Shown in pieces: positions 51 through 64,000 of a stretch of 64,000 bases of DNA. Source of the DNA: Planctomycetota bacterium. GTDB taxonomy: Bacteria > Planctomycetota > PLA2 > JAEUHO01. The notes under the pieces are model-generated. The model did no database searches and was not told the origin of the DNA. It saw only the letters and a program-made list of their open reading frames with translations. Numbering within the stretch: position 1 is the stretch's first letter; every line of letters starts with the position of its first letter. The position numbers and the translations under genes are program-made. The stretch is taken from contig CBDCWP010000005.1 in the NCBI GenBank assembly GCA_965223505.1, positions 1 through 64,000 on the forward strand. Direction: 5' to 3'.

Positions 51-77
51 CGGGCGGGGCCCTCGCCCCGCCCCTAC
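51..77 (-). repeat. GTAG-type REP-like palindrome
   Basis: Reverse complement is GTAGGGGCGGGGCGAGGGCCCCGCCCG; overlaps the RHS stop codon; similar copies at 15630 and 28864. Confidence 0.65.
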
Positions 78-3000
78 TCCTCCTCTTGGATGATGATGCG
101 CGGCGTCACCATCAACGTCAGCGACTGCGTTCCGCGACCGATCCCGACGTTCTTGAACAACCGGCTGATGTACGGAATCCGGCTCAACATCGGCACGCCG
201 CGCTCGTTCGCCGGCTTCTTCGTCGTCTTGATTCCACCCAGCAGAATCGTACCCGTCTGGGGGAGCGTGACCTGCGTGCGCACGCGCTGAAGCCGCAGCT
301 CCGGAAGCTGGATGACGATCGGCGCGCTGTCGTCCACGAACGCCGTCGAGAAGGTCTGGATCGGCCGCACCAGCTCCGCGACGGTGGGCTGCAGCGTCAA
401 CCGCACGTAGCGGCGATCGCTGCTGACCGTCGGCCGCACGTCGAGCGTGATGCCGTCCTGAATGATGCCCACGATCGGATCGGCAACGAACGACGTCTGC
501 GCGATCTCGACGTCGAAGTCCCGGATGTACGACGTCTGGTTGATCGCGCCGACGTTCGCGCGCTGGGTGTTGAAGACGGTGATCCGAGGTGCTTGCACCA
601 TCGAGAGACGTTCGCTCCTTTGGACGGCTCGCAGGATGACCTCGAGCTCCGTGTCGTCGAGGAACGTCGGTTGGAACGCCAGTCCGTCACGCGTCGTCTG
701 CGAACCGCCGATCGCCGCGTCGCCAAGCCCCTCGGCGCGGGTCTTGAGCCCGTCGTCGCTTCCGTCGTCGACGCCGCTCCCGAACGTGTCCGAGGGCTGG
801 TTGACCGGCGGACACTCCGCGACCGCGCCGGCGAGCCCCCGAAAATCGACGCCGATGTCGCGCAAGAAGTTGTCCGATACGGTCACGAAGCGCGTCTCGA
901 CGGTCACCTGGAGATCCAGCACCCGACGCAGGTCTTCGAGCAAGTCGGCGATCTTGTCCTGGACCTGCGGCGTGGTCGCTGCCGCGACGGCGTTGGCGTC
1001 GAACCCGCTTCCGGCGCCGCCGGACAGTCGGCCCTGCCGGTCGCCGGTACGGGGGCTCACGGAACCGCTCGCCGAGCGGTAGTGCTGCGTCCCCGCGTCG
1101 TAGAAGGCCCCCTTCTTGAGGAGCGGGTTCCCGCGCGCGCTGAACGCCGCGTCGAGCATGGTCATCGCATCGCGAATCGTCGGAACGCTGAACCCGTCGT
1201 AGTCGTACCACTCGACGGGAATCCCGTTGTCGTCGACGAGCGCGCTCGGTCCGTTCTGGTAGTCGGACGTATAGAAGAAGCTCTGGTCCGGGTCCCCGTC
1301 GGCGTTGGTGTCGCGGTCCATCGCGAAGACGTCGCCGATGCCGCCGAAGAGGAATTGCGCCAGCGTGCGCGTGCTGCCGCCGGGACGAATCTCGATCACC
1401 CGCTCCCCTTGGTAGATGAACACGAGGTCGGTATTGAAGGCCGGAACGTTGGTGACGACCTTGCGAGTGCGCCGGTCGCGCGCGTCGTAGGTGTTTTTCT
1501 CGAAGATGAAGTCCGGCGCGCTCACGAAGCGCGCCACGGCGATCCGCCCCAGGAAGTCGCACTGATATACGAAGAAGTCGTCCTCGGACTCGGTGCCGAT
1601 GCCGGCCGTGCCGCCGTCGTACTCCTTCGAGGTGTCGCCCTGCACGCTGTTGCGCGTGATGTTGGTCGTTTGATTGATCACGCCGTCCGTCTTGAAGATC
1701 CGCGTGACGGCGCCGGTCCCCGTCAATCGCGCGTCGGTCTGCAGGATGCCGAGCCCGAGGATCGTCGCGGTCTCGTCGCGGGTGATGGTGAACGGCCGGC
1801 CGCGTGAGTCGTACGTCGTGCTCGTCGCTCGGGTCACGTTGTTCCCGCCCGGCACGGTGCGCGACGTCGTCAGCTGCGAGAGCAGGTTCGTACGCGTGCG
1901 CCCCACGCCGGTGATCTGCGAGATGACCGCGGCCGCGCCGTTCTGCACGGTCTGCGCGAACGGCAGTCCGAGCTCGTCCGTCGTCGTGCTGGTCTCCAGG
2001 ACCGTGCTTCCGCTCGCCGCCGTCGTCTCCATGAAGGGGAAGCTGTTGCGCCCCTGGTAGTAGCGATCGTTGCGGATCGTCGTGGGGTTCGACACCACGG
2101 TGGGCTGGTTGATCGGGTCGTACTCGTACGACACCACGCGGCTCGCGCCGGGGTAGCGCAGCTCGACCGGATCGTCGGCATCGTAGGACACGCCGACGGC
2201 CAGGCCGTCCTGCACCTCTTCGACCTTGCGGCCGCAGGAGTCCCACTTGAAGACCAGCACCGAGTCGTCCGCCGCGGTGCCGGGTTCGTTGTTGTCCGTC
2301 GCCCGCGTGACGCGCGAGAGCCCGTCGTACTGCCACGTCAGCTCCGTCGAACCCACGTACAGCGGGTGCGCGCCGCCGGCGACCGTGAGCAACGGATCGG
2401 TCACGCCGGTCAGCCGCGTGAGCCGGTCGAGCGCGTCGTACTGGCCGGTCATGACCGTGCCGTTCTCGTCGGTGCGCTGGACCATGTTGTCGTTGAAGTC
2501 GTAGGCGTAGGTCTGTTGGCTCCCGTCGGGATTGAGCATGACCGTGCGCCGGTCGAGCGCGTCGTACTCGTACGTCGTCTGGTTCCCGACGTCGTCGAGC
2601 AGGCTGACCAGCCGGCCGTTGGCGTCGAGCTGCCGAACGATCCGAATCAGCCCGTCCGCGTTGTCGGGGTTGGTCATGTCGAGCGGTTGATCGCCCTGGC
2701 CGTTGACGCGCAGCTCGTGCGTTCGGAGCCACAGCCGGCCCGCCCCGTCGTAGGCGTAATGGTTGCCGTTCCCGCGATCGTTGATGTTGCCCGCCGTGAA
2801 GAGGCCGAGGGGATCCGCGATCGACGCACCGCGCGCGTCCCATCGCGAGACGACGCGGTTCGCGCTGTCGAAGTCGAAATACGTGGTCTGCCCCTTGGCG
2901 TCCGTCACGCGTGTCAGCCGGTGAAGGGCGTCGAACACGACGTGGGACGTCTGGGTCGCGGGGGCGACCAACGAGTCGGGGCTCACGTGGGTCTCTTCGA

Positions 3001-5941
3001 CGCGGATGAGGTCGACGGCGTCGTAGAAGTAGTCGGTCGCCTGCGGCGTCGGACCGGCGGGATCGACGAGCGGGCGGATCTGCCGGACGAGGCGGTCCAG
3101 ACCGTCGTACACGAAGCAGTCCTGCGCCAGATCGTCGGTCGTGATGACGGTCTGCCGGCTGAGCGCGTCGTATTCGTAGCGGGTGCTCTTCTTGCTGTCG
3201 CCCGGCGTGAGCGCGCCGTCCTGCACGGTCGCGCCGGATGTGAGGATGATGCCGGCCGGAACGAACAGGTCGCGATCCACCCCGATCAGCCGTCCGAGCT
3301 CGTCGTACGAGAGATCCGCGCCCGAAAGCGCGACGTTGCCGCCGCCCGAGCCGTCGGCCGGCCCCGTGCAGTCGTATCGAATCAGCCGATCGACAGCGTC
3401 GTACGCGTACGTGCACACGTTCCCGCCGCGGTCGTTTTCCTGGATCATGCGATCGAAACCGTCGTACGCGTAGAAGTGCGTGTTGCCGGCGTTCTGCGTC
3501 CGAATGCCGGTGAGGTTGTCGTTGGCGTCGTAGAAGTAGTTGATGGCCGACGAATCGGCGCCCAAGCCACCGCGCTGACGAATGAACACACGGTCGTGCG
3601 CGTCGTAGGCTTGCAGGACGCGGGCTTCCGGCTGTGCGCCGGTCGTCGACATGGGACTGCGCACGTCGACGATGTTCTCGTTGGCGTCGTAGTGGTAATC
3701 GGTCATCAGCCGCTGTGCTTGCGCGGACGCCGGAATCGCGGCGTCGCGCGTCGCGTCGATGTCGACGCGAATGACCCGGTCGAGGATGTCGAACGTCATG
3801 AGGTGTTGGTAGACGGACGGACTTCCGGGAACGACCTGATGGGTCGACGGGTCCGTCGTCCAGTGTTCGGCGTCCGTGCGAACGACGTTTCCGTTGGCGT
3901 CGTACGTGTAGTGCGTGAGGAAGCCTCGCGCCTGGCCCGGATCGACCTTCGGAGCCTCGCGCTCGACCAGCTCGCCCAGCTCGTTGTGGAGGTAGAGGTA
4001 CTCGTTTCCGTTCGGGTCGGTCAAGGCGACCAGGTTGCCGAGATCGTCGTATCGATAGGACGTCTGGGCGTCGACGGGTGTGGCCGCGTCCTGACGCCCC
4101 GGACCGGCTACGTCCACGCGCATGCTGCTGCGATAGCCGCCCGCCGCGGGGTCGTTGCCGGCGATGAGGTTCGCGCCGTCGCCGTCGGGATCGTTCTCGG
4201 GAAAGTACGCATAGACGTCGCGGTTGCCGCGCGCGTCGATCAGCTCGACGATGCGGCTGAAGTCGTCGTACGCATAACGGGTGACGTGCTCCTGTTGCGT
4301 GTCCCCCTCGTTCACGGCTTGCTTCGAGCCGGCTGCGAGCGCGACCGTGGGGTCCTCGCGCCGAACGAGATTGCCGGCGCGCTGGTCCGTGCGGCCGTCG
4401 CCGTTGAGATCCCCGAGGTTCAGCTCGGAGGGCGGGATCACGAGACCGAATTCGGGCACGCAGGCCGGCGGCGTGTTGCCTTCCTGGTAGTCGTAGAAGT
4501 AATGCGTCGTATATCGCGCGGCCGACTGGGCGCCGCCGTTCTGCGGCACGTACGCGGGGTCGTTGCCCCGCGGATCCGTGATCGTGCGCACCATGTTGTA
4601 GACCGGGTCGTACGTGTAGGTGGTCATCAGCTGCGGATGCGCGCTGGGACGAACGCCGTCCGGTGTCAGCGTGATGCTCAGCACGTTGCGTTGCGCCGAG
4701 CGGTCGGGGTTGACCGTGTCGTAGACGAAGTCGACACGGTTGCCGAGCGGCAACGTCCTGCGCGTCACGAGGCCGTCGGGGTTCACCATGAAGTCCGTGA
4801 CACCGGGTGTGCCGCCGGGGTCGGACACGTACCGCAGGCAGTGGCCCACCGCGTCATGGAAGTACTGCGCGACGTTGTTGCGGCGGTCGCGCACGGTGGT
4901 GAGCGACGCCGTGCCGACCGGCCCGCCGACCGGGGCGAAGTCGTAGGTGAAGCTGAACATCCCTCCCGCGGGGCGTCCCGACGCGTTGGCGCCGCCGCGG
5001 ACCTGCGTCACCACGCGATCGAAGGCGACGCCGGGCCCGCCGTAGGTGTTGACGACGGACGGCGTGTTGGAGGCGTCCGCGACCTCGTTCGGCCGAACGA
5101 TCGTCAGCAGATTGTGATTGAGCTCGGGCGACGCCGATCCACTGACGTAGGTGTACCGCTCCGTGCGGCCCGCGGGGAAGTCGTTGCCGTTCGGCGTGCC
5201 GTTCACGGTCGGTGAGCGTACGGCGACGAGGTTGTCGGCGGCATCGTACGTGTACATCACCTGGTTTCCGGTGAAGTCGGTGATCGTCTCGACGAGGTTG
5301 CCCGTGTACGTGAGCACGACCTCCCGGTTGTACTCGTCGAAGATCGATGTCAGCCGAATGCCCGTGTACTGGTACCGCACCTGGTTGCCGGCGGGGTCCG
5401 TCGTGTTCTGGAGCACGCCGTTCAGGTCGAAGCGGCACTTGAGGCCCTGCGGATAGCGCAGCGTGAAACCCGTCGCGTCCTTGATCAGGCGCGCGAAGAC
5501 GCCGGGTGGCGAGTCGTACGTCCCGCCTCCGGTGTCGGCGAACTCGCGCGCGGTGCCGTTGCCCGGATGCCAGATCACGTCTCCGCCCGACTGCTCGTCG
5601 AGGCGCATGAAGATGTTGGAGTCCCAGCCGAACCCGAACGGTCCCGCTTCGTGAACGAGACTGCCGTAGAACCGCTTCACGACGATCCCGAGGCGCCGAG
5701 CGCGAATCGCCATGTCGACACGCGAGAGACGGAACTCACCGCTGTGAAGCCAGACGCCTGCCGCGCTGTCCTGCGGTGAGAGCCCGGCGCTCGCGTTGGT
5801 CGCCGGCGGCTGCAGGTGCGGTCCGAGCACGACGATGATGCCGCCACCTCCGCCACCACCGCAGCCGGTGCAAAGCAGCACCGCCAACATCCAGAAGAAC
5901 CAACGGACGCGATGCTTCGATCCAAACCCCGTCATCATCAT
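74..5941 (-). CDS. RHS/YD-repeat lipoprotein with C-terminal secretin (GspD/PilQ-like) domain
   Basis: GAGGAG RBS before ATG at 5941; lipobox-like LLCTGC; RHS N-terminal motif (GPFGFGWDS); many YxYD repeats; C-terminal ~300 aa with secretin motifs QVTVETRFVTV, APRITVFNTQRA, GITLDVRPTVS, GVPMLSRIPYISRLF, LMVTPRII. Confidence 0.85.
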   Translation of the reverse strand: MMMTGFGSKHRVRWFFWMLAVLLCTGCGGGGGGGIIVVLGPHLQPPATNASAGLSPQDSAAGVWLHSGEFRLSRVDMAIRARRLGIVVKRFYGSLVHEAGPFGFGWDSNIFMRLDEQSGGDVIWHPGNGTAREFADTGGGTYDSPPGVFARLIKDATGFTLRYPQGLKCRFDLNGVLQNTTDPAGNQVRYQYTGIRLTSIFDEYNREVVLTYTGNLVETITDFTGNQVMYTYDAADNLVAVRSPTVNGTPNGNDFPAGRTERYTYVSGSASPELNHNLLTIVRPNEVADASNTPSVVNTYGGPGVAFDRVVTQVRGGANASGRPAGGMFSFTYDFAPVGGPVGTASLTTVRDRRNNVAQYFHDAVGHCLRYVSDPGGTPGVTDFMVNPDGLVTRRTLPLGNRVDFVYDTVNPDRSAQRNVLSITLTPDGVRPSAHPQLMTTYTYDPVYNMVRTITDPRGNDPAYVPQNGGAQSAARYTTHYFYDYQEGNTPPACVPEFGLVIPPSELNLGDLNGDGRTDQRAGNLVRREDPTVALAAGSKQAVNEGDTQQEHVTRYAYDDFSRIVELIDARGNRDVYAYFPENDPDGDGANLIAGNDPAAGGYRSSMRVDVAGPGRQDAATPVDAQTSYRYDDLGNLVALTDPNGNEYLYLHNELGELVEREAPKVDPGQARGFLTHYTYDANGNVVRTDAEHWTTDPSTHQVVPGSPSVYQHLMTFDILDRVIRVDIDATRDAAIPASAQAQRLMTDYHYDANENIVDVRSPMSTTGAQPEARVLQAYDAHDRVFIRQRGGLGADSSAINYFYDANDNLTGIRTQNAGNTHFYAYDGFDRMIQENDRGGNVCTYAYDAVDRLIRYDCTGPADGSGGGNVALSGADLSYDELGRLIGVDRDLFVPAGIILTSGATVQDGALTPGDSKKSTRYEYDALSRQTVITTDDLAQDCFVYDGLDRLVRQIRPLVDPAGPTPQATDYFYDAVDLIRVEETHVSPDSLVAPATQTSHVVFDALHRLTRVTDAKGQTTYFDFDSANRVVSRWDARGASIADPLGLFTAGNINDRGNGNHYAYDGAGRLWLRTHELRVNGQGDQPLDMTNPDNADGLIRIVRQLDANGRLVSLLDDVGNQTTYEYDALDRRTVMLNPDGSQQTYAYDFNDNMVQRTDENGTVMTGQYDALDRLTRLTGVTDPLLTVAGGAHPLYVGSTELTWQYDGLSRVTRATDNNEPGTAADDSVLVFKWDSCGRKVEEVQDGLAVGVSYDADDPVELRYPGASRVVSYEYDPINQPTVVSNPTTIRNDRYYQGRNSFPFMETTAASGSTVLETSTTTDELGLPFAQTVQNGAAAVISQITGVGRTRTNLLSQLTTSRTVPGGNNVTRATSTTYDSRGRPFTITRDETATILGLGILQTDARLTGTGAVTRIFKTDGVINQTTNITRNSVQGDTSKEYDGGTAGIGTESEDDFFVYQCDFLGRIAVARFVSAPDFIFEKNTYDARDRRTRKVVTNVPAFNTDLVFIYQGERVIEIRPGGSTRTLAQFLFGGIGDVFAMDRDTNADGDPDQSFFYTSDYQNGPSALVDDNGIPVEWYDYDGFSVPTIRDAMTMLDAAFSARGNPLLKKGAFYDAGTQHYRSASGSVSPRTGDRQGRLSGGAGSGFDANAVAAATTPQVQDKIADLLEDLRRVLDLQVTVETRFVTVSDNFLRDIGVDFRGLAGAVAECPPVNQPSDTFGSGVDDGSDDGLKTRAEGLGDAAIGGSQTTRDGLAFQPTFLDDTELEVILRAVQRSERLSMVQAPRITVFNTQRANVGAINQTSYIRDFDVEIAQTSFVADPIVGIIQDGITLDVRPTVSSDRRYVRLTLQPTVAELVRPIQTFSTAFVDDSAPIVIQLPELRLQRVRTQVTLPQTGTILLGGIKTTKKPANERGVPMLSRIPYISRLFKNVGIGRGTQSLTLMVTPRIIIQEEE

Positions 5942-6087
5942 CAACTCCTCACTCCCACGCCCGCGAAGCCCGCTTCCAGGGGCTGGTTCAGCGTAGTCCG
6001 GGCGTGCTTTCCTTCGCAACGCCCCAGTGCGAACCGTCGGATCGTTCGGACGGTTCGGTGTCCCCCGAACGGCGCTACGCTTGGGGT

Positions 6088-7731: not shown

Positions 7732-8160
7732 CTACTCCGGCTGCTCGGCGGCGAACTCCGTGATGCTGCGCAGCTCGGGGACCTCGTCGGGGCCGACCCG
7801 AATGTCGCCGACGAGCGTGGCGCCCTTGTCGACCACGAGCCACGAGGCGCGCACGTTGCCCTCGACGGAGGCCTTCTTGCCGATGTGAACGCCCTGCAAC
7901 GAGAACACGTTGCCGGTCACGCGGCCTTCGATCTTGAGATCGTCGGCGCGGACGTTCGCGAAGACGAGGCCCTTCCGGGTGATGTGCACGTGGTTGGCGA
8001 CCTTGAAGTTGCGAATCGCCATGTAGTTCGTGACGCGCGACGACTCCGTGATCACGCGCTGATGGCAGTGGCGGCAGCTGACCGACTTGGCATTCACGTT
8101 GATCTGCATCGGCTGATCGCACGACGTGCACAGCGTCAGCCGATCTTTGGAAGCCGCCAT
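7732..8160 (-). CDS. Bactofilin with N-terminal Zn ribbon
   Basis: CTSC...CRHC followed by bactofilin repeats (IEGRVTGNV, VEGNVRA, GATLVGDI). Confidence 0.8.
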   Translation of the reverse strand: MAASKDRLTLCTSCDQPMQINVNAKSVSCRHCHQRVITESSRVTNYMAIRNFKVANHVHITRKGLVFANVRADDLKIEGRVTGNVFSLQGVHIGKKASVEGNVRASWLVVDKGATLVGDIRVGPDEVPELRSITEFAAEQPE

Positions 8161-8266
8161 AGGAGGGGTCCCCGCTCCGAACCTGAATGAGAACGGCCAT
8201 CCGCGCGCCCGTCCCGTGACAGGGGGCGGCGACGCGCGGATGGCTCAGCGGAAGGACGGGCGGTCG

Positions 8267-8677
8267 TTACTTGCGACCGGCAGCCGCGTCGGCGATGGCG
8301 CGCATGTTGTCCGTCGTGGCGGGCTTGCTCGCCTTCACGGTGCCGCCGACCTCGCAGCGACCCACGAACACCGCGCCTTCCTGGACGAGCAGCTTCGCCG
8401 CGCGCACGTCGCCGTGCAGCTTGCCCGACGCGTTGAGCTCGACGCGGTTCTCGGCCATGAGGTTGCCCTCGACGTGGCCTTCGAGTGTGATCGACCCTGC
8501 GTTGATCTCGGCCTTCATCTTGCCGGTCTTGCTGACCAGGACCTTGCCCGGCGTCTTGATGCCCCCCTCGAACTGGCCGTCGATCTTCACGCCGCCGTCG
8601 AACGAAAGCTCGCCTTTGAACTTCGCATCGGCGCCGATGACGGTCGCATAGTCAGGGTTGGTCGGTGTGGATGCCAT
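8267..8677 (-). CDS. Bactofilin (polymer-forming cytoskeletal protein)
   Basis: TVIGADAKFKGEL...IDGQFEG...GKLHGDVRAAKLLVQEGAVFVGRC. Confidence 0.9.
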   Translation of the reverse strand: MASTPTNPDYATVIGADAKFKGELSFDGGVKIDGQFEGGIKTPGKVLVSKTGKMKAEINAGSITLEGHVEGNLMAENRVELNASGKLHGDVRAAKLLVQEGAVFVGRCEVGGTVKASKPATTDNMRAIADAAAGRK

Positions 8678-8825
8678 CGGTGTCTCCTGAGGTGTCTGGG
8701 CTCACTTGCGTGCGCAGACGGGTTTCCCGGATCGGCGGGTCCCCCGGACCCGCGCGTGGCGGACTGTAGCAATGGGGACCCCCGCCTCCCGGCGGCCCTG
8801 ACGCGAAGGGCGACGCTGCGGGACG

Positions 8826-38517: not shown

Positions 38518-41500
38518 CTACTTGGCGGTCACGTCGATGACGGTCTCGCCGGTTCCGTCGAGCTCGACCTCTTCGTCGTAGATCGGCTCCTGGTTGTTCA
38601 CGAACCCTTGCCCGAACACGCGCACCGTCACCTTGAACCGGCCGGCGCCGAGGCCCTTGACGACGAGGTCCTTGCCGTCCGCCATCTGGAGCCACATCGA
38701 TCGCTGGTACTTGGGCTCACCCTGGTGATGCACCTGCACCCACGTCTGCGGCTTGGTGTCGCTCTGCGTTGCGACACGCACGCGGATCGTCGCGCCCACG
38801 GGCTGCTGCAGCATGCCGAGGTCGGTGACGCCTTCGCCGACGGTGACGTTCTTCTTGATGATCGGCGCCTTCTGATACGCCTCGATCCACAGCGTGTACT
38901 TGCCCGGCGGGAGCCCGCCGAGCCGCCACGTCGTCCCCTTGAGCGTCGGATTGATGCTCTTGACGGTCTTCTCGAGCGTCCCGCCCTCGAAGACGACGAC
39001 GCGCACTTGCCCGCCGCCCCCCGGCATCGGCATCGAGGGCACCGGGATCGCGCCCGACGTGCTGCTCGGATCCTTCGGCTCCGGCGTGTCGGGGTGTTTG
39101 AAGTGGATCTCGCTGCCCGCGACCATCGTGATGGTGATCGGACCGCCGCCGGCGACGACCGCGATGTTCGTGTTGCCGCCGGCGACGCCGAGCACCGGAT
39201 GGCGAACCATCAACATCACCTCTTGGCCGGCGACGCCGCGGATCTTGAAGTTGCCCTTCTGATCCGGACGGCGTCCCGCCCACTGATTCGCCGGATCGTC
39301 CTGGCCTTGCACCAGGATGCGCGTCTGCTGCGCCGACTCGCCCTCGGGCACCTCCACCTTGCCCTCGATCCAAACGGAGGTCGTCAGATCGAGCATGATC
39401 TCCGACGGCGGGCCCCCGAGCGTCACCTCGACGGAGTTGCTCTCGATGCGCGACGTGGCGTCGCGAGCGCGGTACGTCCCCGCCTTCAGGCCTTCGAACT
39501 TCTGTGAGCCGTCGTCGGCTCGCCCGCCCGCCCGATTGCCGCTCATCGGGTTGAACCCGCTGTTCCCCCCTGAGTGGTCCCACTTCTGGGTCTCGTCGTT
39601 CCACTTCTGCAGCTGCAGGTTGTACGAGCCGTCGGAAGGCTTCTCGACGTACACGATGACCGTGCCTGCTGCGGGCATCTCGACCTTGACGGTCTGCTCG
39701 GCCTGGCCCTTGCCGGGCACGATCTCGGCTTTGCCCTGCAGATAGCCCTGCGCGTTCACGATGACCGGGACCGGCTTCTCGGACTCGATCTGCTGCTCGC
39801 TCCAGCGATGTGCCACGCGCAGCTCGCCGGCGTCGGGGTCCTCGGTGATCTCGTTGACGTTCTTCCACGCGCCGCCGATGGTCACGTTGAACTGGGGCGG
39901 AAGACGGTCTTCGCCGTCGATGTTGATGCGGATGACGATCGGCGCCTCCGGCTCCATGTCGATCTCGTAGAGGTCCTTGCCCTCTTCGATCTTGAAGTTG
40001 CCGATCATGGCGCCGCCCCACGCCTGGTGCGGCGGCAGCATGTAGACCTGAACCTGGATCCCGTCCTGGACATCGACCTCGACCTTGCCTTCCGGGTCGG
40101 TGGTCATCGGCTCCATCGTTTGCATCGCCATCGAACCCTGAAGGCGAATGCGCGCGTCGGCGACCGGCCCGGCGCCCTTCTCCTTGATGGCGATCGTGAC
40201 CTTGCGACTGGCGGCGAACGAGACCGGGTTGCCCTTCTCGGCGCCCGCCTGACACCAGAAGGCCGCCTCGGCGTTCTCGGCGACGACGCGCCCGTTCATC
40301 CAGCTGTCCGGCAGCCCCTCGATGACGAGCTCCCCGTCCTTCATGTACGCCTTCATCTCCTTGCTGGCGAAGTTACGCATCCAGAACTGGAGCTCCACGC
40401 GCAGCTCGGTTCCGTCCGGCGGCGGATCGACCTTGGCGTTGTCGGCGATCGGGAACGTGACGGTGCGGAACTTACCGAGCTTGATCGTCCCCTCCGTGTC
40501 GTCGGCCTTGACGGAGTTGGACGGGGTTCCGCCCCATGGGTTCGGCTTGGGATAGCCCTGAGCCTCCGCAACGAACCGGTAGGTCTTCTTGGGCGTCAGG
40601 CCGGTGACGCGGGTCTTGCCTTCCTCGTTCGTGGGTTCGACCTCGAGCGGCGGCAGCATGCCGGACGCGTTGATGTTTCCGAAGTTGCCCTGCACGGAGA
40701 CCTTGGCGCCGGGAATGGGCTCCTCGGTCTCCTTGTCGACGACCGTGAGCTCGATGATGCGCTCCTCCGGCAGCTCGACCTTGAATACGTCTTTGGACGT
40801 GCGCGGGAGCGTCACCATCTTCTGACCGCGGCCGTAGCCTTTCGCCGCGCACAGGGCCGTCACGTTGCCCTCGGGAAGCAACGACGCTTCGAACACGCCG
40901 GCTTCGTTGGTCTTGCCTTCGGCGACGGGCGTCATCTGTCCCCAGACCGTCGACGTCACGACGACGTCCGCGTTCGGAACAGGCGCCTCCTGATGCACGA
41001 CGTGAACCGCGAGCTTGTGCGCGGTCCCCAGGATGATCGGGTTGACGACGACGACCTCCCCCGATTGCTGGGAAAGCCACATGCCGCTCACGCCGGTCAG
41101 CGGACCGGGTGCGTTGGCGCGCACGAGCCCCATCGCCCAGCCCGTCTCGGGCGCGTCACCCGCGTAGAACTGGTACTCACCGTTCGCGTCCGTCTTCGTC
41201 GCGATCTTGTCGCGATCCTTGAAGCGCGCCACCACCTCGGCATCCGCGACGGGTCTGCGGCGGTCGTCGAGGACGCGCCCCTTGACGAGAATCCCGCCCA
41301 GCTCGTCGGGTCCGACGAGCCCCTCGGGGAGCTCGGCGGCCTTCGCGGCGGCGGCTTCTTCGGCGGCGCGGCGGCGGGCGGCTTCCTCGTCGCCCTTGAG
41401 CAGCGCGCGCGACGCCTCGTCGTCGTAGTCGTCTTCGTAGCCGGCGCCGTCGTACCCGTCGTCGGTTCCTGTGAGCATCTCGCCGAAGAGCAGCCACATC

Positions 41501-41547
41501 AGCCCCAGCACTACGACGGCAACCGCGCCGACTACCAGTACGCGCAT
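38518..41547 (-). CDS. Large membrane-anchored carboxypeptidase-regulatory-like repeat protein
   Basis: N-terminal TM; repeated GRVLD..PVADAEV and TDANGEY; GLPPGKY. Confidence 0.75.
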   Translation of the reverse strand: MRVLVVGAVAVVVLGLMWLLFGEMLTGTDDGYDGAGYEDDYDDEASRALLKGDEEAARRRAAEEAAAAKAAELPEGLVGPDELGGILVKGRVLDDRRRPVADAEVVARFKDRDKIATKTDANGEYQFYAGDAPETGWAMGLVRANAPGPLTGVSGMWLSQQSGEVVVVNPIILGTAHKLAVHVVHQEAPVPNADVVVTSTVWGQMTPVAEGKTNEAGVFEASLLPEGNVTALCAAKGYGRGQKMVTLPRTSKDVFKVELPEERIIELTVVDKETEEPIPGAKVSVQGNFGNINASGMLPPLEVEPTNEEGKTRVTGLTPKKTYRFVAEAQGYPKPNPWGGTPSNSVKADDTEGTIKLGKFRTVTFPIADNAKVDPPPDGTELRVELQFWMRNFASKEMKAYMKDGELVIEGLPDSWMNGRVVAENAEAAFWCQAGAEKGNPVSFAASRKVTIAIKEKGAGPVADARIRLQGSMAMQTMEPMTTDPEGKVEVDVQDGIQVQVYMLPPHQAWGGAMIGNFKIEEGKDLYEIDMEPEAPIVIRINIDGEDRLPPQFNVTIGGAWKNVNEITEDPDAGELRVAHRWSEQQIESEKPVPVIVNAQGYLQGKAEIVPGKGQAEQTVKVEMPAAGTVIVYVEKPSDGSYNLQLQKWNDETQKWDHSGGNSGFNPMSGNRAGGRADDGSQKFEGLKAGTYRARDATSRIESNSVEVTLGGPPSEIMLDLTTSVWIEGKVEVPEGESAQQTRILVQGQDDPANQWAGRRPDQKGNFKIRGVAGQEVMLMVRHPVLGVAGGNTNIAVVAGGGPITITMVAGSEIHFKHPDTPEPKDPSSTSGAIPVPSMPMPGGGGQVRVVVFEGGTLEKTVKSINPTLKGTTWRLGGLPPGKYTLWIEAYQKAPIIKKNVTVGEGVTDLGMLQQPVGATIRVRVATQSDTKPQTWVQVHHQGEPKYQRSMWLQMADGKDLVVKGLGAGRFKVTVRVFGQGFVNNQEPIYDEEVELDGTGETVIDVTAK

Positions 41548-41731
41548 CTCGTGGCCCTCCCAAGCACACCGGACATCCGCGCGCCCATCGTAGGCCGAAC
41601 CGCGGGGCTGTGGTCACGCCCCGGGGTGTTGTTTGGACGCCTCGCAGGTGCGGCTCCAGGCTCAATTTGGTACCACCTGGGATCGAGGCCGCGCGTTCCG
41701 GATCGAGCGGCAAACACGACGGAGGTGCCCG

Positions 41732-44879: not shown

Positions 44880-47800
44880 CTACTCGCGCTTCTCGTACTG
44901 GAGCAGAACACCGGTGCTGCCGGCCGCGACCGCGGCGGGCGGCTCCGCCACGTTGCCACCGCGTACGCTCGCACGAATCTGGTAGTCCCCGGGCGGCAGG
45001 CCCGGAATGCGAAACGAGCCGTCCTTCGACACCGTTCCGTCCGCGCGGGCGGAGCCGGTACGGGCGCTGACACTACCCCGGCCGCCGCTCGGGAAGCCCT
45101 CGATGCGGCCCTCGATTGCGAGTCCCGTCTTCAGCACGAGCTTGAACGGACCTTCGGAGGGGCGTACGGCTTCCACCAGCGCGTAGCGATCGTCTGCCGC
45201 GCTCTGCGCGAAGAGCGTGCCGGGCTCGTCGTCGCCGAGCTCCATCTCGAAGTGGCCCGTGCCGTCGACCCCCGTGCCCCGACTCGCTCCCGGCTTCATG
45301 AACGTGACGGAGAATCCGGACACGTTCTTCCCGGTGACGACGCCCGTCAGCTTGAACGTCTTCGGGGCGCGCAGCACGAGGTCGTCGGTCGGCGCGTCGA
45401 CGAGAACGCGCTGGGGCTCGCCCGCTCGCGATGAGCGCATCGGTCGCACCGTCACCGTGTAGCGCCCCGCACGCAGCGGCCCCAAGCGGAACTCCCCCGG
45501 GGCCTGATGCACCCACGTGCTGAACGTGCCTGTCACGCCGTCGACCCCTTTGGCTTCGATGCTCACGTTCCAGGTCGGGTTGCCTTCGGTGTCGAGCACG
45601 CGGCCTTCGATGTAGACGCCTTTCACGAGTGTCACACCGACATCGGTCGCGCCCGTCGCGACCTCGGGCAGGGTCTCGGTGACGTACCCGGCGCCGGAAC
45701 GAGGCTGGAAGCTCACGCTCAGCGAAACCGTCACGTCCGAGGGCAAGCCGGGCAGCCGGAAGCGACCGTCGGGCTCACACTGCGTGTTCCAGTTGGTGCG
45801 CGGAACTTGCTTCTCGCGCAGCGCTTCCCGCGCGGCCCTCGTGAGCCGCGCGCTCACCGTCGCCCGAAGTCCGTTGCCGCCCTCGTCCGTCACGCGCCCT
45901 TCGATGGCGGCGCCGCGCTGCACCACGAACAACACGTCGGTTGCGCCGGCCTTCACCGTCTGCTTGGGCGGCGCGGTCCACTCGCCCGCGGCATGCACCT
46001 GGAGCTCCACGTCCGAGTCGTCGAGGCCCGGAAACGTGAACGCGCCGTCCTCGGTGGTCGTCACCACTCGCTCGTACCAACGCTCGCCCGACGCCGGCGT
46101 TGCGCGCGCCGATACCGCCAGTCCCGAGACGCCCGTCCCGTTCGCGCTCGTTACGCGTCCCGACACCGTCGTACCGGTTTCGAGCCGGACCTCGACCGCT
46201 CCCGACCGATCGATCTCGAGCGCCGTGACCGGCCTGAGGTTCAAGGGCCGACCCGCCGCGTCGCGCGGATCCCGGATCTCGAGCCTCAGCGTCCCCTTGT
46301 CGGGCACCTCGATGGCAAAACGGCCGTTGGCAACCTGGCCGCCGAAGCCCTGGCGACTGTTGTTGTGCTCGGCGTAGACGGTCACGTTCGCCGAGCCGAT
46401 GGGCGTACCGCTCTGATCGAGGATCTGCCCCGTGACGGTCACTCGCTTCGGCGCTTCGTAGACGATGCGCAGGTTCGTGGCGCCGGGATCGTACGTGCCG
46501 ACGGGCTCGGTGCCGTTCCCGATTCTCAGGCTCTTCCGCCCCTCGGTCAGCCCCACGATCTCGAAGCGGCCGTCGAAATTCGTCCGTCCGGTCCAGAAGC
46601 CGATGACGCTGCGATCGAGGTTCTGCAGCACGATGTTCACGTTCGGGACCGGCTCGCCGGCCGGATCGACCACGACACCCGCGAGCCTGAGGGCCGCGTC
46701 CGTGGTGAGCACGAAGTCGTCGCGCAGCTCGCCCCACCCGAGCTCGACGGTCTCCTGCTTCTGCCGGGGATTCATGTTGCCGTAGGCGCCGCTCTGAAAG
46801 AGCCCGTAGGTCCCCGCGGCGAGGCCGTCGAACCGGAACGCGCCGCTTGTGTCGCTGATCGCCCACACGCTCCGGCCGCCTTCGGGCCGCAGTGTGACGT
46901 TCGCATTCGCAATCGGCTCGCCGTCGGTCGTCTCGACCCTGCCGGCCAAGGCGGATGTTCGATACAACACCAGATGGAGCACGTTCTCGCCGGACGGCGT
47001 CAGCCGGAACCCCGTGGACGCGCTACGGCGACCGCCCTGACGGGCGGTGACGGTCCAATCGACACCGGGGAACAGTGCCGGCAACACGAAGACGCCGTCC
47101 GCGTCGGTTTGCACGACGTGCGGATCCGCCATCAGGCCGACGTACGGCATGGTCGTCACCACCGCCTCGACGAGCGCCTCGGGAACGGCGCGGCCGGCAT
47201 CGTCCGATACGGTGCCGCGCAGGGGCGTACCCGCTCGAACCACGATGTCGCGCGTCACCGTAGCGCCCTCCGGCTCGAGCTCGACGGGCACGCTGCTCTC
47301 GAGCCGTCGCCCGAAGCGCCCGCCCAGCTCCGGAAGCGGCTGGAAGTGATCGGCACAAAGCGCGTGCAGATAGCCACGGCCGGGTGAAACCTCGTTCAAG
47401 ACGAACGAACCGTCGTCGGACGACGTCGCTTCGGCGCGCTGACTCTGAACGTGGTGGTGCCCGGATCCGGGGTCGCTCACCCAAATGACGCGCGCGGCGG
47501 CGACGCCGGCGCCGTCCTCGTCTAGCACGCGTCCTCGGATGGTCCCGCCCTTGACCAGCGTCGCGTCGATCCCCGCGGCCGAACCGCCCGGCATCGGGAC
47601 GTTGATGCCGTTCTGACCCCAAGGGATGTAGCCGTCGGCGACGACCGCGATGCCTTGCACGCGGCCGGCGAACATGTTCTCGACGCGGTAGCGGCCCGCG
47701 CCGTCGGTCGTAGCCTGGCGCATCATCGCGCGCGTCCAGGATTGCAGCGGCGCATCGGTCGTGGTGACGGCGACGCGCGCTCCCGCGACCGGCTCCCCCA

Positions 47801-48617
47801 CCATGTCGCGAATCACACCGGTGACGCTTCCGGTTCCCGCAATGCGAATCACGACCTCTTCGTCGCTGGGCGACCGCACGGGAATGTCACTGATGCGCAG
47901 GACGCCGGGCACGACGACCGTGAGCTTGAGCTCTCCTGCGGGCGCGTCGTGGATCTGAAACGTACCGTCGGCCGCGGTCGCCGTGCGCGAGAGCTGCCAG
48001 TTTCCGGTGACCACCGGCATGCGGTTGTCGGTCTGGTGAAAACCGGTGAGCCACGCGACCACGCCCTTGCCGTTGGCGTCGACGACCCTGCCGTTCAGTC
48101 GCGCGCCCTCGCGCGCCACCAGGCGCACGATTTGGGCCTCGAACGAGGCGACCGCGATGGTCCTCGTCACGCCGAGCGGGCGCGGCGGGCTCGCGACGAC
48201 TGCGTACGAACGGTGGTTGATCAGCCGATCGAGCATGAACCGGCCCTCGGCGTCGGTGGTCGCGTTCGCGACGACCGCGCCCTCCGGCCTCGGGACGGCA
48301 AGCGCCGTCTCGACCTGATTGCGCACCCAGTCGTAGTGCTTGGGTCCTTTCGGAACCACGATGGCGGCGATCGGAACGCGGGGCAACGGCCGGCCGGCCG
48401 CGTCGACGACGACCCCGCGGATGTGGGCCGACCGTGCGACGGACCCGGCCGTGTTCTCCTTGATGAGGCGCTCGCGTCCCTTCAGCTCTGCAGGGATCTC
48501 CTCGTCGCGGATGTCCTCTGCGATGCGCGTTTCGTCGTCGAACGGATCGAAGACGAAGAACGCCAATACGACGCCGACAGCCAGCAAGACGACCAGACCG
48601 ATGACGAAGCGACCCAT
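44880..48617 (-). CDS. Large membrane-anchored carboxypeptidase-regulatory-like repeat protein
   Basis: N-terminal TM; ~12 repeats of the form GRVxDxxGxxVxxAxV...TDxxGxF. Confidence 0.8.
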   Translation of the reverse strand: MGRFVIGLVVLLAVGVVLAFFVFDPFDDETRIAEDIRDEEIPAELKGRERLIKENTAGSVARSAHIRGVVVDAAGRPLPRVPIAAIVVPKGPKHYDWVRNQVETALAVPRPEGAVVANATTDAEGRFMLDRLINHRSYAVVASPPRPLGVTRTIAVASFEAQIVRLVAREGARLNGRVVDANGKGVVAWLTGFHQTDNRMPVVTGNWQLSRTATAADGTFQIHDAPAGELKLTVVVPGVLRISDIPVRSPSDEEVVIRIAGTGSVTGVIRDMVGEPVAGARVAVTTTDAPLQSWTRAMMRQATTDGAGRYRVENMFAGRVQGIAVVADGYIPWGQNGINVPMPGGSAAGIDATLVKGGTIRGRVLDEDGAGVAAARVIWVSDPGSGHHHVQSQRAEATSSDDGSFVLNEVSPGRGYLHALCADHFQPLPELGGRFGRRLESSVPVELEPEGATVTRDIVVRAGTPLRGTVSDDAGRAVPEALVEAVVTTMPYVGLMADPHVVQTDADGVFVLPALFPGVDWTVTARQGGRRSASTGFRLTPSGENVLHLVLYRTSALAGRVETTDGEPIANANVTLRPEGGRSVWAISDTSGAFRFDGLAAGTYGLFQSGAYGNMNPRQKQETVELGWGELRDDFVLTTDAALRLAGVVVDPAGEPVPNVNIVLQNLDRSVIGFWTGRTNFDGRFEIVGLTEGRKSLRIGNGTEPVGTYDPGATNLRIVYEAPKRVTVTGQILDQSGTPIGSANVTVYAEHNNSRQGFGGQVANGRFAIEVPDKGTLRLEIRDPRDAAGRPLNLRPVTALEIDRSGAVEVRLETGTTVSGRVTSANGTGVSGLAVSARATPASGERWYERVVTTTEDGAFTFPGLDDSDVELQVHAAGEWTAPPKQTVKAGATDVLFVVQRGAAIEGRVTDEGGNGLRATVSARLTRAAREALREKQVPRTNWNTQCEPDGRFRLPGLPSDVTVSLSVSFQPRSGAGYVTETLPEVATGATDVGVTLVKGVYIEGRVLDTEGNPTWNVSIEAKGVDGVTGTFSTWVHQAPGEFRLGPLRAGRYTVTVRPMRSSRAGEPQRVLVDAPTDDLVLRAPKTFKLTGVVTGKNVSGFSVTFMKPGASRGTGVDGTGHFEMELGDDEPGTLFAQSAADDRYALVEAVRPSEGPFKLVLKTGLAIEGRIEGFPSGGRGSVSARTGSARADGTVSKDGSFRIPGLPPGDYQIRASVRGGNVAEPPAAVAAGSTGVLLQYEKRE

Positions 48618-48689
48618 CTTGTCTCCCGCGACCTGCCGTCATCGTACCGTCGCCCGCGGGACCGTCGCTTGCGGGCGCGGTCGAACGAC

Positions 48690-50303
48690 CTATGCGTTGA
48701 CGCCGCCGTAGGCGATCCCCGTCAAGTGCGCCATGTCGCGATGGTACGTGGTCAGGTCGTCGATACAGAGCTCACGCAGATGCTCGTGACCGCATGCGCG
48801 CGCCAGCACCTGCATGAGTTCGACGGCCGACGCGAAGAAGCGCTGTAGCCGTTGCGCGGCCTCGTCGATCGGAAGGCGCGCGCGCAAGTGCGGCTTCTGG
48901 GTCGCGATCCCGACAGGGCAGTTGTTGGTGTGACACGCGCGCATCGCCAGACAGCCGATCGCCTGCAGCGCCGCGTTCGAGACGGCGACGCCGTCGGCGC
49001 CGAGCGCCATCGCCTTGGCGAAGTCGGCCGGCGTGCGCAGGCCGCCGGTGATGATCAGGGTCACGTCGGGGCCGCAGCGATCCAGGTGCCGGCGCGCGCG
49101 CGCGAGCGCGGGAATGGTCGGTACGGAGATGTTGTCGCGGAAGATGAGCGGCGCGGCGCCCGTCCCCCCGCCGCGACCGTCGAGGATCACGTAGTCGCAG
49201 CCGATCCGCAGCGCGACGTCGATGTCCTTCTCGATGTGCTGCGCGGACAGCTTGAACCCGATGGGAATCCCACCCGTCGCCTCGCGCACCTCGTTCGCGA
49301 AGTCGCGGTACTGATCCTCGCGGTCCCAGTCCGGGAACCGCGCGGGCGAGACGGCCGGCTGCCCGGGCTCGAGCCCGCGCACCTCGGCGATCTTGCCGAT
49401 GACCTTCTTGCCAGGGAGATGGCCGCCGGTGCCGGTCTTCGCGCCTTGGCCGCCTTTGAAGTGGAAGGCCTGCACCTTCTTCAGCTTGTCCATGGAGAAG
49501 CCGAACCGTCCCGACGCGAGCTCGTAGAAGTAGCGGCTGTTCTCGGCCTGTTCCTCCGGCAGCATGCCGCCTTCGCCGGAGCAGATGCCCGTGCCGGCCA
49601 GCTCGGCGCCCCTGGAGAGCGCGACCTTGGCCTCCTCCGAAAGCGCCCCGAAGCTCATGTCCGAGACGAACAGAGGGATGTCGAGCTCGAGCGGCTTGGC
49701 CGCCTTGGGTCCGATGACGAGCTCCGTGCCGACGGGCACGTCGTCGAGCTTCGGCAGTCGCGCGAGCTGCGCGGTGACGAATTGAATGTCTTTCCAGCCC
49801 GGCAGCTCGGGGCCGGGAACCCCCATCGCCGAAGCGGGACCGTGGTGACCCGTCTTCGAGAGTCCCTGCGAGGCGAGCTTGTGAATGAACTTCGTGTGCG
49901 GCTCGTCGGTCGTGCCGTGAAAGTCCTGATAGTCGCCTTGATAGTCGTCGCGATCGAAGGCCTGCGGGTGCTCGCGCTCCCACGACTCGATCTCGGCCGC
50001 GTCGACGAAGACGCCGTCGTCCGCGATCCAGGCGTCGAACTTCGCGAGTCGCTCGTCGTTCGCGTACGCGCTCACGCCCGTACGAAAACGAAAGTCCCAG
50101 CTGTGCACGCCGCAGACGATGTCCTCGCCCTCGACGGTGCCGTCGGCGAGCCGCGCGCCGCGATGCGGGCAGCGACCGTACAGGGCGAAGACCTCGTCAC
50201 CGTCTCGAACGAGCACGATGTCGACGCCCTTGACGTGCGCGCCGAACGGCTTACGTTCCGCGATGTCCGCCAGGTCGGCCACCTTGTGCTCTTTGCGCGG
50301 CAT
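48690..50303 (-). CDS. Rieske [2Fe-2S] + FMN-binding glutamate-synthase-like protein
   Basis: CPH...CGVH Rieske ligands; MSFGALS, SGEGG, GQGAKTG, C-x5-C-x4-CPVG. Confidence 0.88.
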   Translation of the reverse strand: MPRKEHKVADLADIAERKPFGAHVKGVDIVLVRDGDEVFALYGRCPHRGARLADGTVEGEDIVCGVHSWDFRFRTGVSAYANDERLAKFDAWIADDGVFVDAAEIESWEREHPQAFDRDDYQGDYQDFHGTTDEPHTKFIHKLASQGLSKTGHHGPASAMGVPGPELPGWKDIQFVTAQLARLPKLDDVPVGTELVIGPKAAKPLELDIPLFVSDMSFGALSEEAKVALSRGAELAGTGICSGEGGMLPEEQAENSRYFYELASGRFGFSMDKLKKVQAFHFKGGQGAKTGTGGHLPGKKVIGKIAEVRGLEPGQPAVSPARFPDWDREDQYRDFANEVREATGGIPIGFKLSAQHIEKDIDVALRIGCDYVILDGRGGGTGAAPLIFRDNISVPTIPALARARRHLDRCGPDVTLIITGGLRTPADFAKAMALGADGVAVSNAALQAIGCLAMRACHTNNCPVGIATQKPHLRARLPIDEAAQRLQRFFASAVELMQVLARACGHEHLRELCIDDLTTYHRDMAHLTGIAYGGVNA

Positions 50304-50582
50304 GCCGCCCCCTTTCAGCGTGGGTTGCGGAGTCTAGAGCGTTCCACGCCCGCCAACAAGGGAGCGGCGCTTGCCGTCCAACATGCACGTCCCGGCCGCC
50401 TGGCACACGCCGGTTTGCATGAACGCGTGCCGGCGGCGCAGCCCACGCGCGTTGACGTCGCGCGCGCGAGCACCGGTCTCGTATCGAAAGCCGTAGCCGG
50501 GCGCATCAAGAGGATCGCCGACCGAAGCAGGACGAGCCTTCGGACAGACTCTGGTTCCGGAATGCCCGATTCCCGGAATGCC

Positions 50583-53177: not shown

Positions 53178-53207
53178 CATCGCCGTCGATCCCCGTACAA
53201 TCCGCCC

Positions 53208-54056
53208 GTGTGGGTCGCCGCCGCCCTTCTCGTGTCCGTCGCATTCTCGGGGCCGGGCTCGGATGACATCCAGCGCGCGGCGCGCAAGGTCGTGTCGGAT
53301 AGCGACTACCAGTCGAAGCACCAGCTGCGCAAGCCGCGCTCCGAAGGCGGGAACGACGTCCGGCTCGACGAAGACTGGGACGACCTCCAGAACTGGGAGC
53401 GCAGAGGTGGCGGCGCGCCGGCGCCCGAGGACGACGGCGGTGTAGTGGACCGCACCGACCGCGACGATCTCGGCGAGCGACGACGCAACCGGCGCGGGAT
53501 CGACCGCACGGCACGCCGCAGGCCGCGTGACATCCCACGGCGGGACGAGCCGGAGATCGACAGCTCGTCGGGCTCGATGGACCTGTCCGGCGTCTTCACC
53601 GTGCTGGGCTGGACCGTCGTCGGCGTCATCGCCGTGCTCGCCGTGGTCTGGCTGGTCAACGCGCTCACGGGCTACAACCAGAACGTCAAGGCCAAGAAAG
53701 ACGCGGATCCGCCGGTGCCGGACACCGAGAAGACCGCCGCGCTGGTGCGCCCGAAGAGCGAGGCCGAGCTGCTGGCCGAAGCGGGCAAGTTCGGCGAAGC
53801 GATTCACGTCCTGCTCCTGCTCACGTTGGCCGAGCTGGCCCGCAACCAGAAGGGTGTTCTGCGGGACTCCATGACGAGTCGCGAGATCGTCGCCGGTGTA
53901 CCGGTGCCTGAGTCCGCGCGTCCGTCGCTGGCCGGGCTGGTGCAGGCGGTGGAGCGCTCGTTGTTCGGCGGGGTCGAGCCGGCTCGCGCCGACTTCGAGG
54001 TCTGCCTCGACCACTTCAACACCTTCGCTGCCGCCTACGCCGAGGGCGCGGCGTGA
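53208..54056 (+). CDS. DUF4129-type membrane protein
   Basis: AEAGKFGEAI, SMTSRE, ERSLFGG; first gene of the MoxR operon. Confidence 0.75.
   Translation: MWVAAALLVSVAFSGPGSDDIQRAARKVVSDSDYQSKHQLRKPRSEGGNDVRLDEDWDDLQNWERRGGGAPAPEDDGGVVDRTDRDDLGERRRNRRGIDRTARRRPRDIPRRDEPEIDSSSGSMDLSGVFTVLGWTVVGVIAVLAVVWLVNALTGYNQNVKAKKDADPPVPDTEKTAALVRPKSEAELLAEAGKFGEAIHVLLLLTLAELARNQKGVLRDSMTSREIVAGVPVPESARPSLAGLVQAVERSLFGGVEPARADFEVCLDHFNTFAAAYAEGAA

Positions 54057-55259: not shown

Positions 55260-55282
<23 letters not shown>
54053..55282 (+). CDS. DUF4350-type membrane protein
   Basis: [30 protein letters not shown]. Confidence 0.75.
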
Positions 55283-56216
<934 letters not shown>

Positions 56217-56218
56217 CC

Positions 56219-63988: not shown

Positions 63989-64000
63989 CGTGGGCTCGGT

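Follow-up and report, generated by a model that had tools for sequence, protein, structure and literature searches.

An RHS shell without its autoprotease core, joined in frame to a hybrid secretin module in a single Planctomycetota contig

Secretins, whose beta-barrel is a 12-15-mer, include lipoprotein-type members known in the literature as liposecretins. Long YD-repeat shells of the rearrangement hot spot (RHS) type are found in effectors of type VI secretion systems (T6SS), such as RhsA, Rhs1 and Tse5, and in the TcB-TcC cocoons, and the available text of two studies describes the DPxG motif as required for C-terminal cleavage and toxin release (PMC8765631, PMC10684867). In teneurins, according to the available parts of two reports, a conserved C-terminal region forms an uncleaved plug and the C terminus exits the shell via a gap (PMC8765631, PMC5851990). 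Here we analyse a gene in which an RHS shell and a secretin module share one open reading frame (ORF). It lies on the reverse strand of a 64,000-bp stretch (hereafter the window) of the 70,932-bp contig CBDCWP010000005.1 from a Planctomycetota bacterium (assembly GCA_965223505.1), and ends 73 nt from the window start. Like the T6SS effectors and the cocoons, its product has a DUF6531 domain and a long YD-repeat shell, and like teneurins it is a YD shell without a protease motif that carries a further C-terminal domain. Both parts are of known kinds, in a combination seen once, and the interpretation proposed in a preliminary description of this stretch is partly supported by the results given below.

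The frame at 74..6019 (−) is open for 1981 codons counted from a TTG at 6019, and all residue numbers refer to this frame (P0001); the identical public protein, P0002, is 1954 aa long and has one member, from one contig of 70,932 bp. Reading frame, Pfam matches and predicted fold all agree with the preliminary description in that a single ORF encodes RHS repeats followed by a secretin C-domain. Within the shell, nine stretches match RHS_repeat of Pfam (PF05593, 179 bits) and the NCBIfam model YD_repeat (TIGR01643) reaches 112 bits. The precomputed Pfam list of P0002 also includes PF25023, which we take to be 'TEN_YD-shell', and the nearest solved chains to the shell are T6SS Rhs cores and Tse5. 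The RHS part, which makes up ~80% of the query, is 40-44% identical to the closest RHS relatives (P0122-P0136). Aligned with 15 relatives, the shell shows no insertion or deletion of at least 8 aa between residues 60 and 1668, and similarity is even along its length. Residues 1400-1555 are less conserved (0.45), from which we draw no inference because this region is variable in all relatives.

The shell differs from those of its relatives at its end. Most close RHS relatives end with a DPxG motif, ~27 aa, a second DPxG and then a variable tail, and the RHS-associated core model TIGR03696 scores above its cut-off in 11 of the 13 closest of them (P0124 lies below the cut-off and P0133 gives no match). 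The window protein has no TIGR03696 match at E<=0.1. The string GNPLLKKG, quoted in the preliminary description, begins at residue 1630 (nt 1132), and the core is recognisable up to residue 1647 only (SARGNPLLKKGAFYDAGTQHY; 11.2 bits, a score equalled by none of 2000 shuffles). Beyond residue 1069 the protein contains no DPxG, so that the earlier remark on its absence where the core normally ends holds. Since the core ends before the first DPxG, the canonical aspartyl self-cleavage would not be usable by the RHS part and, judged from the sequence, has been lost. A frameshift concealing a normal RHS tip was considered and rejected, as neither DPxG nor N-domain-like sequence is found in any other frame. 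Unlike RHS toxins, the window protein thus has a core that stops before PxxxxDPxGL/DPxG, an N terminus with a Sec signal and no recognisable toxin: its Pfam and NCBIfam matches include no toxin family, and the tail is the secretin domain. Also unlike them, it is accompanied by no immunity gene within the 73 nt downstream, and Pfam detects no T6SS, PAAR or VgrG family among the 52 ORFs (38 + 14) of the window. As a separate observation on RHS tips, the toxin slot of the close relative P0122, whose TIGR03696 core is intact, is filled by an HU/IHF-like DNA-binding domain (residues 1713-1805). This tip scores 70 bits to HU-beta, under the cut-off of that model, and appears to be another housekeeping-type domain captured at an RHS tip.

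The C-terminal module matches Pfam Secretin (PF00263) at residues 1798-1976 with 80.6 bits, against a cut-off of 27.5 and within the range of 77-104 bits obtained for 10 secretin relatives, and NCBIfam gives partial PilQ/GspD/MshL matches over residues 1671-1980. Columns conserved in the family are matched at 22 of 22 positions in 1686-1727 and at 92% of 98 positions in 1787-1980 (family means 0.93 and 0.90, respectively), and the terminal branch of the module measures 0.38 compared with a median of 0.29. In an AlphaFold model of residues 1600-1981, built with 53 homologs and without the shell, the predicted local distance difference test (pLDDT) score is 76-97 across most of 1680-1981. Foldseek comparison against the PDB yielded 40 matches at E<=1e-3, the top-ranked of which are all secretins: the best is PilQ (6w6m, 8e-17), followed by GspD, BfpB, InvG, RcpA and pIV, with PilQ and GspD at E-values of 1e-15 to 1e-17. 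Profile hidden Markov model (HMM) scan, structure prediction and Foldseek are in agreement on the secretin identity assigned earlier, and confirm the module as a bona fide secretin whose fold is predicted to be intact and which shows no decay. It is thus similar to other secretins of Planctomycetota with PF00263 in having a domain complete by HMM, conserved columns and predicted fold; its closest relatives are annotated GspD/CpaC-like proteins of Planctomycetota metagenome-assembled genomes, with up to ~47% identity overall.

The part that normally precedes the barrel is a different matter. Secretin homology begins at residue 1686, and therefore the N-domains are missing; Pfam finds no Secretin_N or STN match in the window protein. 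In the secretin relatives, a helix and two strands open the last N-domain ~40 residues before this point; here they are missing or unrecognisable, and only the final helix and strand of the domain are kept. The column match over the last N-domain is 0.50, compared with a family mean of 0.88, and only 1 of 123 relatives is as low. Unlike the ~870-aa secretins with tetratricopeptide repeats (TPR-secretins), the window protein has no TPR region, STN/N0 or intact N-domain before the barrel.

The secretin module is itself composite. Its relatives fall into two Planctomycetota families, the ~870-aa TPR-secretins (short type) and secretins of 1100-1450 aa (long type), the latter including those of Pirellula and Lignipirellula. 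The barrel (residues 1686-1917) is 64-70% identical to the best short-family proteins, while the tail, compared over residues 1918-1981, has its best identity, 78%, with the long-family protein P0099. In trees built for each segment (232 and 64 residues; FastTree local supports), the barrel of the window protein is placed inside an 83-leaf clade containing 82 short proteins (support 0.963) and its tail inside a 29-leaf long-type clade (support 0.995). Among the 350 homologs in which both segments are aligned, barrel identity is at least 50% in 179 (with a best tail identity of 43.5%) and tail identity is at least 60% in 119 (with a best barrel identity of 37.1%), whereas a short-type barrel and a long-type tail occur together in none, and the two identities are correlated at −0.90. 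The switch between families coincides with the motif xPDGGT-LLGG: its P-D pair, lost in the window protein, is retained by each of the 15 most frequent variants among 362 instances in homologs. Heterotachy in place of recombination is disfavoured, because the segment trees nest P0001 within each family with supports of 0.96-0.995. From these comparisons, the secretin module appears to combine two secretin families of Planctomycetota in a recombinant without parallel among the 350 homologs, a feature that the preliminary description had not noticed. Unlike known secretins, it draws barrel and tail from two families, has PQTGT in place of PDGGT, and is encoded in a window without T2SS, T4P or Tad genes (type II secretion system, type IV pilus and Tad, respectively). 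A cluster of rare codons at the family switch is not unusual because the ORF has five such clusters. Regarding the two families more generally, a lipoprotein-type start by a PS51257-like rule is present in 141 of 190 ~870-aa TPR-secretins of uncultured Planctomycetota (among P0241-P0499) and in 4 of 99 members of the 1100-1450-aa family, which suggests that the former constitute a large clade of self-piloting liposecretins.

Between shell and barrel lies a segment of 38 residues (1648-1685) that we could assign to neither parent. Its interpretation as a decayed secretin N-domain is not supported, as 497 of 2000 shuffles score equally well against the N-domain profile, and neither is its interpretation as decayed RHS core, for which 1426 of 2000 shuffles do. 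A phmmer alignment to PilQ passes through the segment, but is carried by the flanking conserved helix. No other frame at this joint resembles either parent, and no DNA repeat or microhomology is present there. In the AlphaFold model without the shell, pLDDT is 37-56 up to residue ~1679, and 41-56 over the segment, which is predicted to be a flexible linker. This sets the protein apart from teneurins, which keep the full Rhs-associated core and a ~125-aa internal linker, whereas here a truncated core is followed by only 38 aa.

Several features are those expected of a native gene, at least as far as its sequence can tell. The start is likely to be the first of three ATGs, at 5941, preceded by a Shine-Dalgarno-like element (Table 1). 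Downstream, only 73 nt remain within the window, and a hairpin sits there; the 61-nt fold has −36.1 kcal/mol (z −2.67; 3 of 200 shuffles equally good), and may serve as a terminator or stability element, although a consensus terminator scan did not list it. Codon usage is uniform, with no step, throughout the ORF and agrees with that of the other genes of the window: scores in 150-codon windows range from −0.655 to −0.965, and the window genes average −0.788 (sd 0.079). In tetranucleotides, the secretin part correlates with the remaining window sequence at 0.906. Composition gives no signal of an inter-species chimera. The lipobox claimed earlier calls for a caveat: LLCTGC is lipobox-like and passes a relaxed rule of our own, but fails a PROSITE-PS51257-like rule due to the Cys at position −3. 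The relaxed rule is passed by 152 of 190 TPR-secretins, the nearest secretin family, and by 2 of 110 RHS relatives, in which a lipoprotein-like N terminus is rare (2-5 of 110 over the two rules). Inheritance of the signal peptide from the secretin parent was considered and rejected, as it has no specific similarity to the N termini of either parent family (best E-value of 0.028).

To look for the fusion elsewhere, we ran two word-indexed searches over 5.8 billion proteins and one exhaustive HMMER search over 1.84 billion representatives. With residues 1480-1981 as the query and proteins of 1089-3467 aa as targets, 119 of the 120 matches listed are secretins without RHS domains and the remaining one is the protein itself; in the word-indexed search with the whole protein, 119 of the 120 matches listed are RHS proteins without PF00263. 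When residues 1250-1981 were used in the exhaustive search, only the self match spans the query among the matches listed, the other 149 beginning at query position ~401, i.e. residue ~1650. Altogether, none of 378 secretin-side matches has an RHS part and none of 119 RHS-side matches has a secretin part. Among shorter proteins the search found secretins only, none of them nearly identical. In genome contigs, the search yielded no more than two RHS loci of Sphingomonas, which are unrelated (33% over 96 aa). A usable match was likewise lacking in the ESM Atlas, and the literature searched, in part by titles only, contains no description of an RHS-secretin fusion. However, no relative of either half exceeds ~50% identity overall; the lineage is therefore poorly sampled, and failure to find the fusion elsewhere counts for less than it might seem. 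The preliminary description had not recognised the architecture and had stated beforehand of its interpretation that occurrence in no other genome would speak against it. In fact, the fusion is found in no other protein searched, both partners are cut within domains, and the secretin piece is itself composite, so that a new architecture is not supported. What remains of the suggested non-cleaving RHS on a secretin is a core cut before DPxG and a secretin that follows in frame.

We lean, if only slightly, towards a real one-off rearrangement that altered the 3' end of a polymorphic-toxin gene of the RHS type in an uncultured Planctomycetota-like bacterium, and the product of which may be functional or not; this preference concerns the reality of the gene in the genome, and covers an unselected accident as well as a device maintained by selection. 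A full-length, Sec-exported RHS shell would have been deprived of its toxin tip and of the final ~35 aa of its core, which carry the aspartyl autoprotease. Via the unstructured segment of 38 aa it would have been joined to a piece of ~300 aa from the end of a secretin, this piece being itself a putative hybrid of two paralogous secretin types. A real rearrangement is favoured by the native composition, complete shell, undecayed secretin, Shine-Dalgarno element with ATG and post-stop hairpin. The N terminus, lipoprotein-like by the relaxed rule as in most TPR-secretins but few RHS relatives, also seems to favour it, and the uncleaved shells of teneurins, along with P0124 and P0133 that lack a scoring core, may be counted on the same side by analogy.

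A number of observations weigh against this reading. By rough geometry, 12-15 shells of ~170 kDa on 38-aa tethers would make each ring very crowded. Both joints lie inside domains, and the near-invariant Asp of PDGGT is lost. The secretin part is a unique hybrid, which gives two unprecedented joints within ~0.8 kb, possibly near a contig end, and the fusion is, among the sequences searched, a singleton (one member, one contig). In addition, the lipobox fails the PROSITE-like rule, and the last N-domain of the secretin is missing by column match; the available text of a study on PulD names N3 as the one region reported critical for prepore formation (PMC6946019). The internal second joint therefore lowers our confidence in a working machine.

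The same two joints, at 248-268 and 965-1078, are what an assembly chimera might leave behind. Here, the end of a contig would have been extended via ambiguous graph paths from an RHS gene to a short-type and then a long-type secretin gene, all three pieces coming from the same or closely related genomes, and the gene would exist in no cell. We assign this explanation an appreciable, though lesser, probability. RHS proteins and secretins are multi-copy families, of the kind that break and tangle assemblies, the protein is a singleton from one contig, the gene is at the window edge with the contig only 6.9 kb longer than the window, and joint 2 falls on a motif common to both secretin families that might provide a shared k-mer. 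Nevertheless, at joint 1 there is no repeat or shared sequence, leaving RHS and secretin genes without bridging homology, no step in codon usage is seen, and no donor at least 95% identical is present among 497 homologs, a set that is not the source sample and in which the best identities are 70%, 65% and 78%. Moreover, a chimera should switch cleanly from one canonical sequence to the next, and neither joint does so; a simple k-mer bridge between two natural genes would not predict the orphan 38 aa at the one or the non-canonical LPQTGT at the other. Of the two outcomes covered by a real rearrangement, a recent, unselected accident is, taken alone, only slightly less probable than a chimera. 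One or two deletions or illegitimate recombinations would have fused co-oriented remnants in frame, in a gene of the rearrangement hot spot type, to give a product without use, or even mildly harmful, that is destined to disappear. The breakpoints within domains, which remove the RHS protease and toxin as well as the secretin N-domains, are in line with such an event, as are the singleton status, the loss of the invariant PDGGT Asp and the lack of partner genes in the window; Jackson et al. are said to have described in 2009 how RHS tips are displaced by recombination. Yet, if the accident is recent, the orphan segment and the LPQTGT scar need separate explanations, and if it is old, decay would be expected, whereas 92-100% of the conserved columns are kept and the 5.9-kb frame is intact.

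The other outcome is a real fusion that selection maintains as a working RHS-on-secretin device. We regard it as doubtful, although the undecayed secretin, the unbroken frame of 5.9 kb and the lipoprotein-like N terminus count in its favour. More doubtful still is its specific form, a self-piloting 'RHS-secretin': a Planctomycetota liposecretin with an uncleavable RHS shell, anchored by lipid, in place of its TPR and N-domains. Such a protein would build an outer-membrane ring that carries 12-15 closed cages or is gated by them, and its roles could include a periplasmic capture-and-release chamber coupled to the pore, or a secretin serving as multimerising anchor for a teneurin-like surface scaffold. 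Finally, the secretin could be the cargo of the shell: a tail of ~334 aa would be held inside and delivered to the envelope of a competitor, where the subunits would insert and leak the membrane. The tail does occupy the variable toxin position, and its 334 aa are just above the 147-311 aa found in relatives with an intact terminal DPxG. Likewise, PulD reportedly inserts into the inner membrane without its pilotin, as Guilvout is said to have found in 2006, and Tse5 is, in the available text on it, an RHS protein with an encapsulated pore-forming toxin (PMC10684867). On the other hand, the autoprotease is absent, while in the available text cleavage is reported as required for toxin release (PMC8765631) and Tse5 D-to-A mutants do not cleave (PMC10684867); the cavities of solved T6SS Rhs proteins, of ~32,000 A^3, are given in the latter source as holding only ~15-16 kDa. 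There is also no immunity gene in the 73 nt downstream within the window, where a hairpin follows the stop. Because the protease is missing and a secretin pore needs 12-15 subunits, we consider the cargo explanation very improbable.

If the product of the rearranged gene is made, its signal peptide would direct it to export, and it may also become lipidated. The RHS shell would stay uncleaved and empty of toxin, as in teneurins, whereas the secretin module would multimerise and insert in the outer membrane, acting as an anchor and oligomerisation platform that holds the shells on the periplasmic side. Such teneurin-like behaviour, with an uncleaved shell tethered to a multimerising C-terminal module, is the best supported by analogy, although the appended domain would be a membrane beta-barrel subunit rather than the ABD/Tox-GHH of teneurins. 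A folded ~170-kDa shell is probably too wide for the lumen of a secretin. Canonical toxin action is not expected, because nothing can be released, and neither is a canonical secretion gate, because there are no N0-N3 domains and no partner genes nearby. Concerning the latter, no T2SS, T4P, Tad, type III secretion system or T6SS family was detected by Pfam among the 52 ORFs of the window, nor any family of inner-membrane platform, ATPase or pilin, which bears out the earlier statement on T2SS, T4P and T6SS. Type V autotransporters provide an analogy only: the order of signal, large passenger-like module and C-terminal outer-membrane barrel in one polypeptide is the same, but there is no homology to the window protein, and their barrels gave only non-significant Foldseek matches (E-value of ~0.1). 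In a genuine and functional fusion, an RHS cage would for the first time take the place of the periplasmic domains of a secretin, and a bacterial RHS shell would for the first time be part of a membrane complex without undergoing autoproteolysis; such a fusion would bear on secretin assembly without N3 and on roles of RHS shells beyond toxin delivery. If it is a one-off rearrangement, it illustrates how RHS 3' ends capture arbitrary gene fragments, and an assembly chimera would serve as a useful warning, since the 'novel architecture' depends on two joints that recur nowhere else among about 15 billion public proteins.

Table 1. Features of the RHS-secretin gene and of neighbouring genes in the window
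Feature	Coordinates	Strand	Basis and remarks
Whole coding sequence	74..5941	−	ATG at 5941 to TAG at 74-76; frame and codon-usage analysis
Shine-Dalgarno-like GAGGAG	5945..5950	−	3 nt before the first of three ATGs; direct sequence reading
Signal peptide with near-lipobox LLCTGC and Gly7 run	5861..5941	−	Cys at residues 50 and 53 of P0001
Complete RHS/YD shell, ~1,580 aa	1079..5806	−	Residues ~72-1647; domain matches and alignment to relatives
DUF6531 domain	5540..5749	−	Residues 91-160; Pfam, 41.6 bits
Start of RHS-associated core (first ~21 aa)	1079..1141	−	Profile and shuffles; remainder with both DPxG missing
Joint 1: 38-aa orphan G/S/A/R-rich segment	965..1078	−	Residues 1648-1685; assignable to neither parent
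Secretin helix and beta-barrel, short TPR-secretin type	269..964	−	Residues 1686-1917; identities and segment tree
Joint 2: family switch at xPDGGT-LLGG motif, here LPQTGT	248..268	−	Residues 1918-1924; motif survey
Secretin C-terminal tail, long Pirellulales type	77..247	−	Residues 1925-1981; identity and segment tree
9-bp G+C hairpin, no U-run	52..73	−	Directly 3' of the stop codon
Divergent neighbour, ~565 aa	6027-7722	+	Single CarboxypepD_reg domain; no NCBIfam match
Bactofilin gene (PF04519)	7735-8244	−	
Bactofilin gene (PF04519)	8270-8701	−	
Very large CarboxypepD_reg / Ig-like repeat protein	38521-41613	−	Up to 300 bits to PF13620 (both such proteins)
Very large CarboxypepD_reg / Ig-like repeat protein	44883-48638	−	See preceding row
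Rieske [2Fe-2S] domain and glutamate-synthase-type FMN domain	48693-50333	−	One ORF
DUF4129, DUF4350, MoxR-type AAA_3 ATPase, DUF58 and RDD-family protein cluster	53178-59435	+	
Ser/Thr kinase-AAA_16-TPR protein, ~1200 aa	59454-63050	−	
PF07638-type extracytoplasmic function (ECF) sigma factor	63470-64000	−	

The remainder of the window encodes bactofilins, ABC transporters, a LysR regulator, a MoxR/DUF58 cluster, a Ser/Thr kinase and a PF07638 ECF sigma factor, among others. NCBIfam models applied to neighbouring unknown ORFs gave nothing relevant, and Rfam and tRNA scans of the DNA found nothing. The RHS-secretin gene and its divergent neighbour share a promoter region of less than 100 nt, and the two adjacent bactofilin genes lie beside this neighbour. 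At the other end of the window, the kinase-AAA_16-TPR gene adjoins that of the PF07638-type ECF sigma factor, a pairing typical of Planctomycetota-like genomes.

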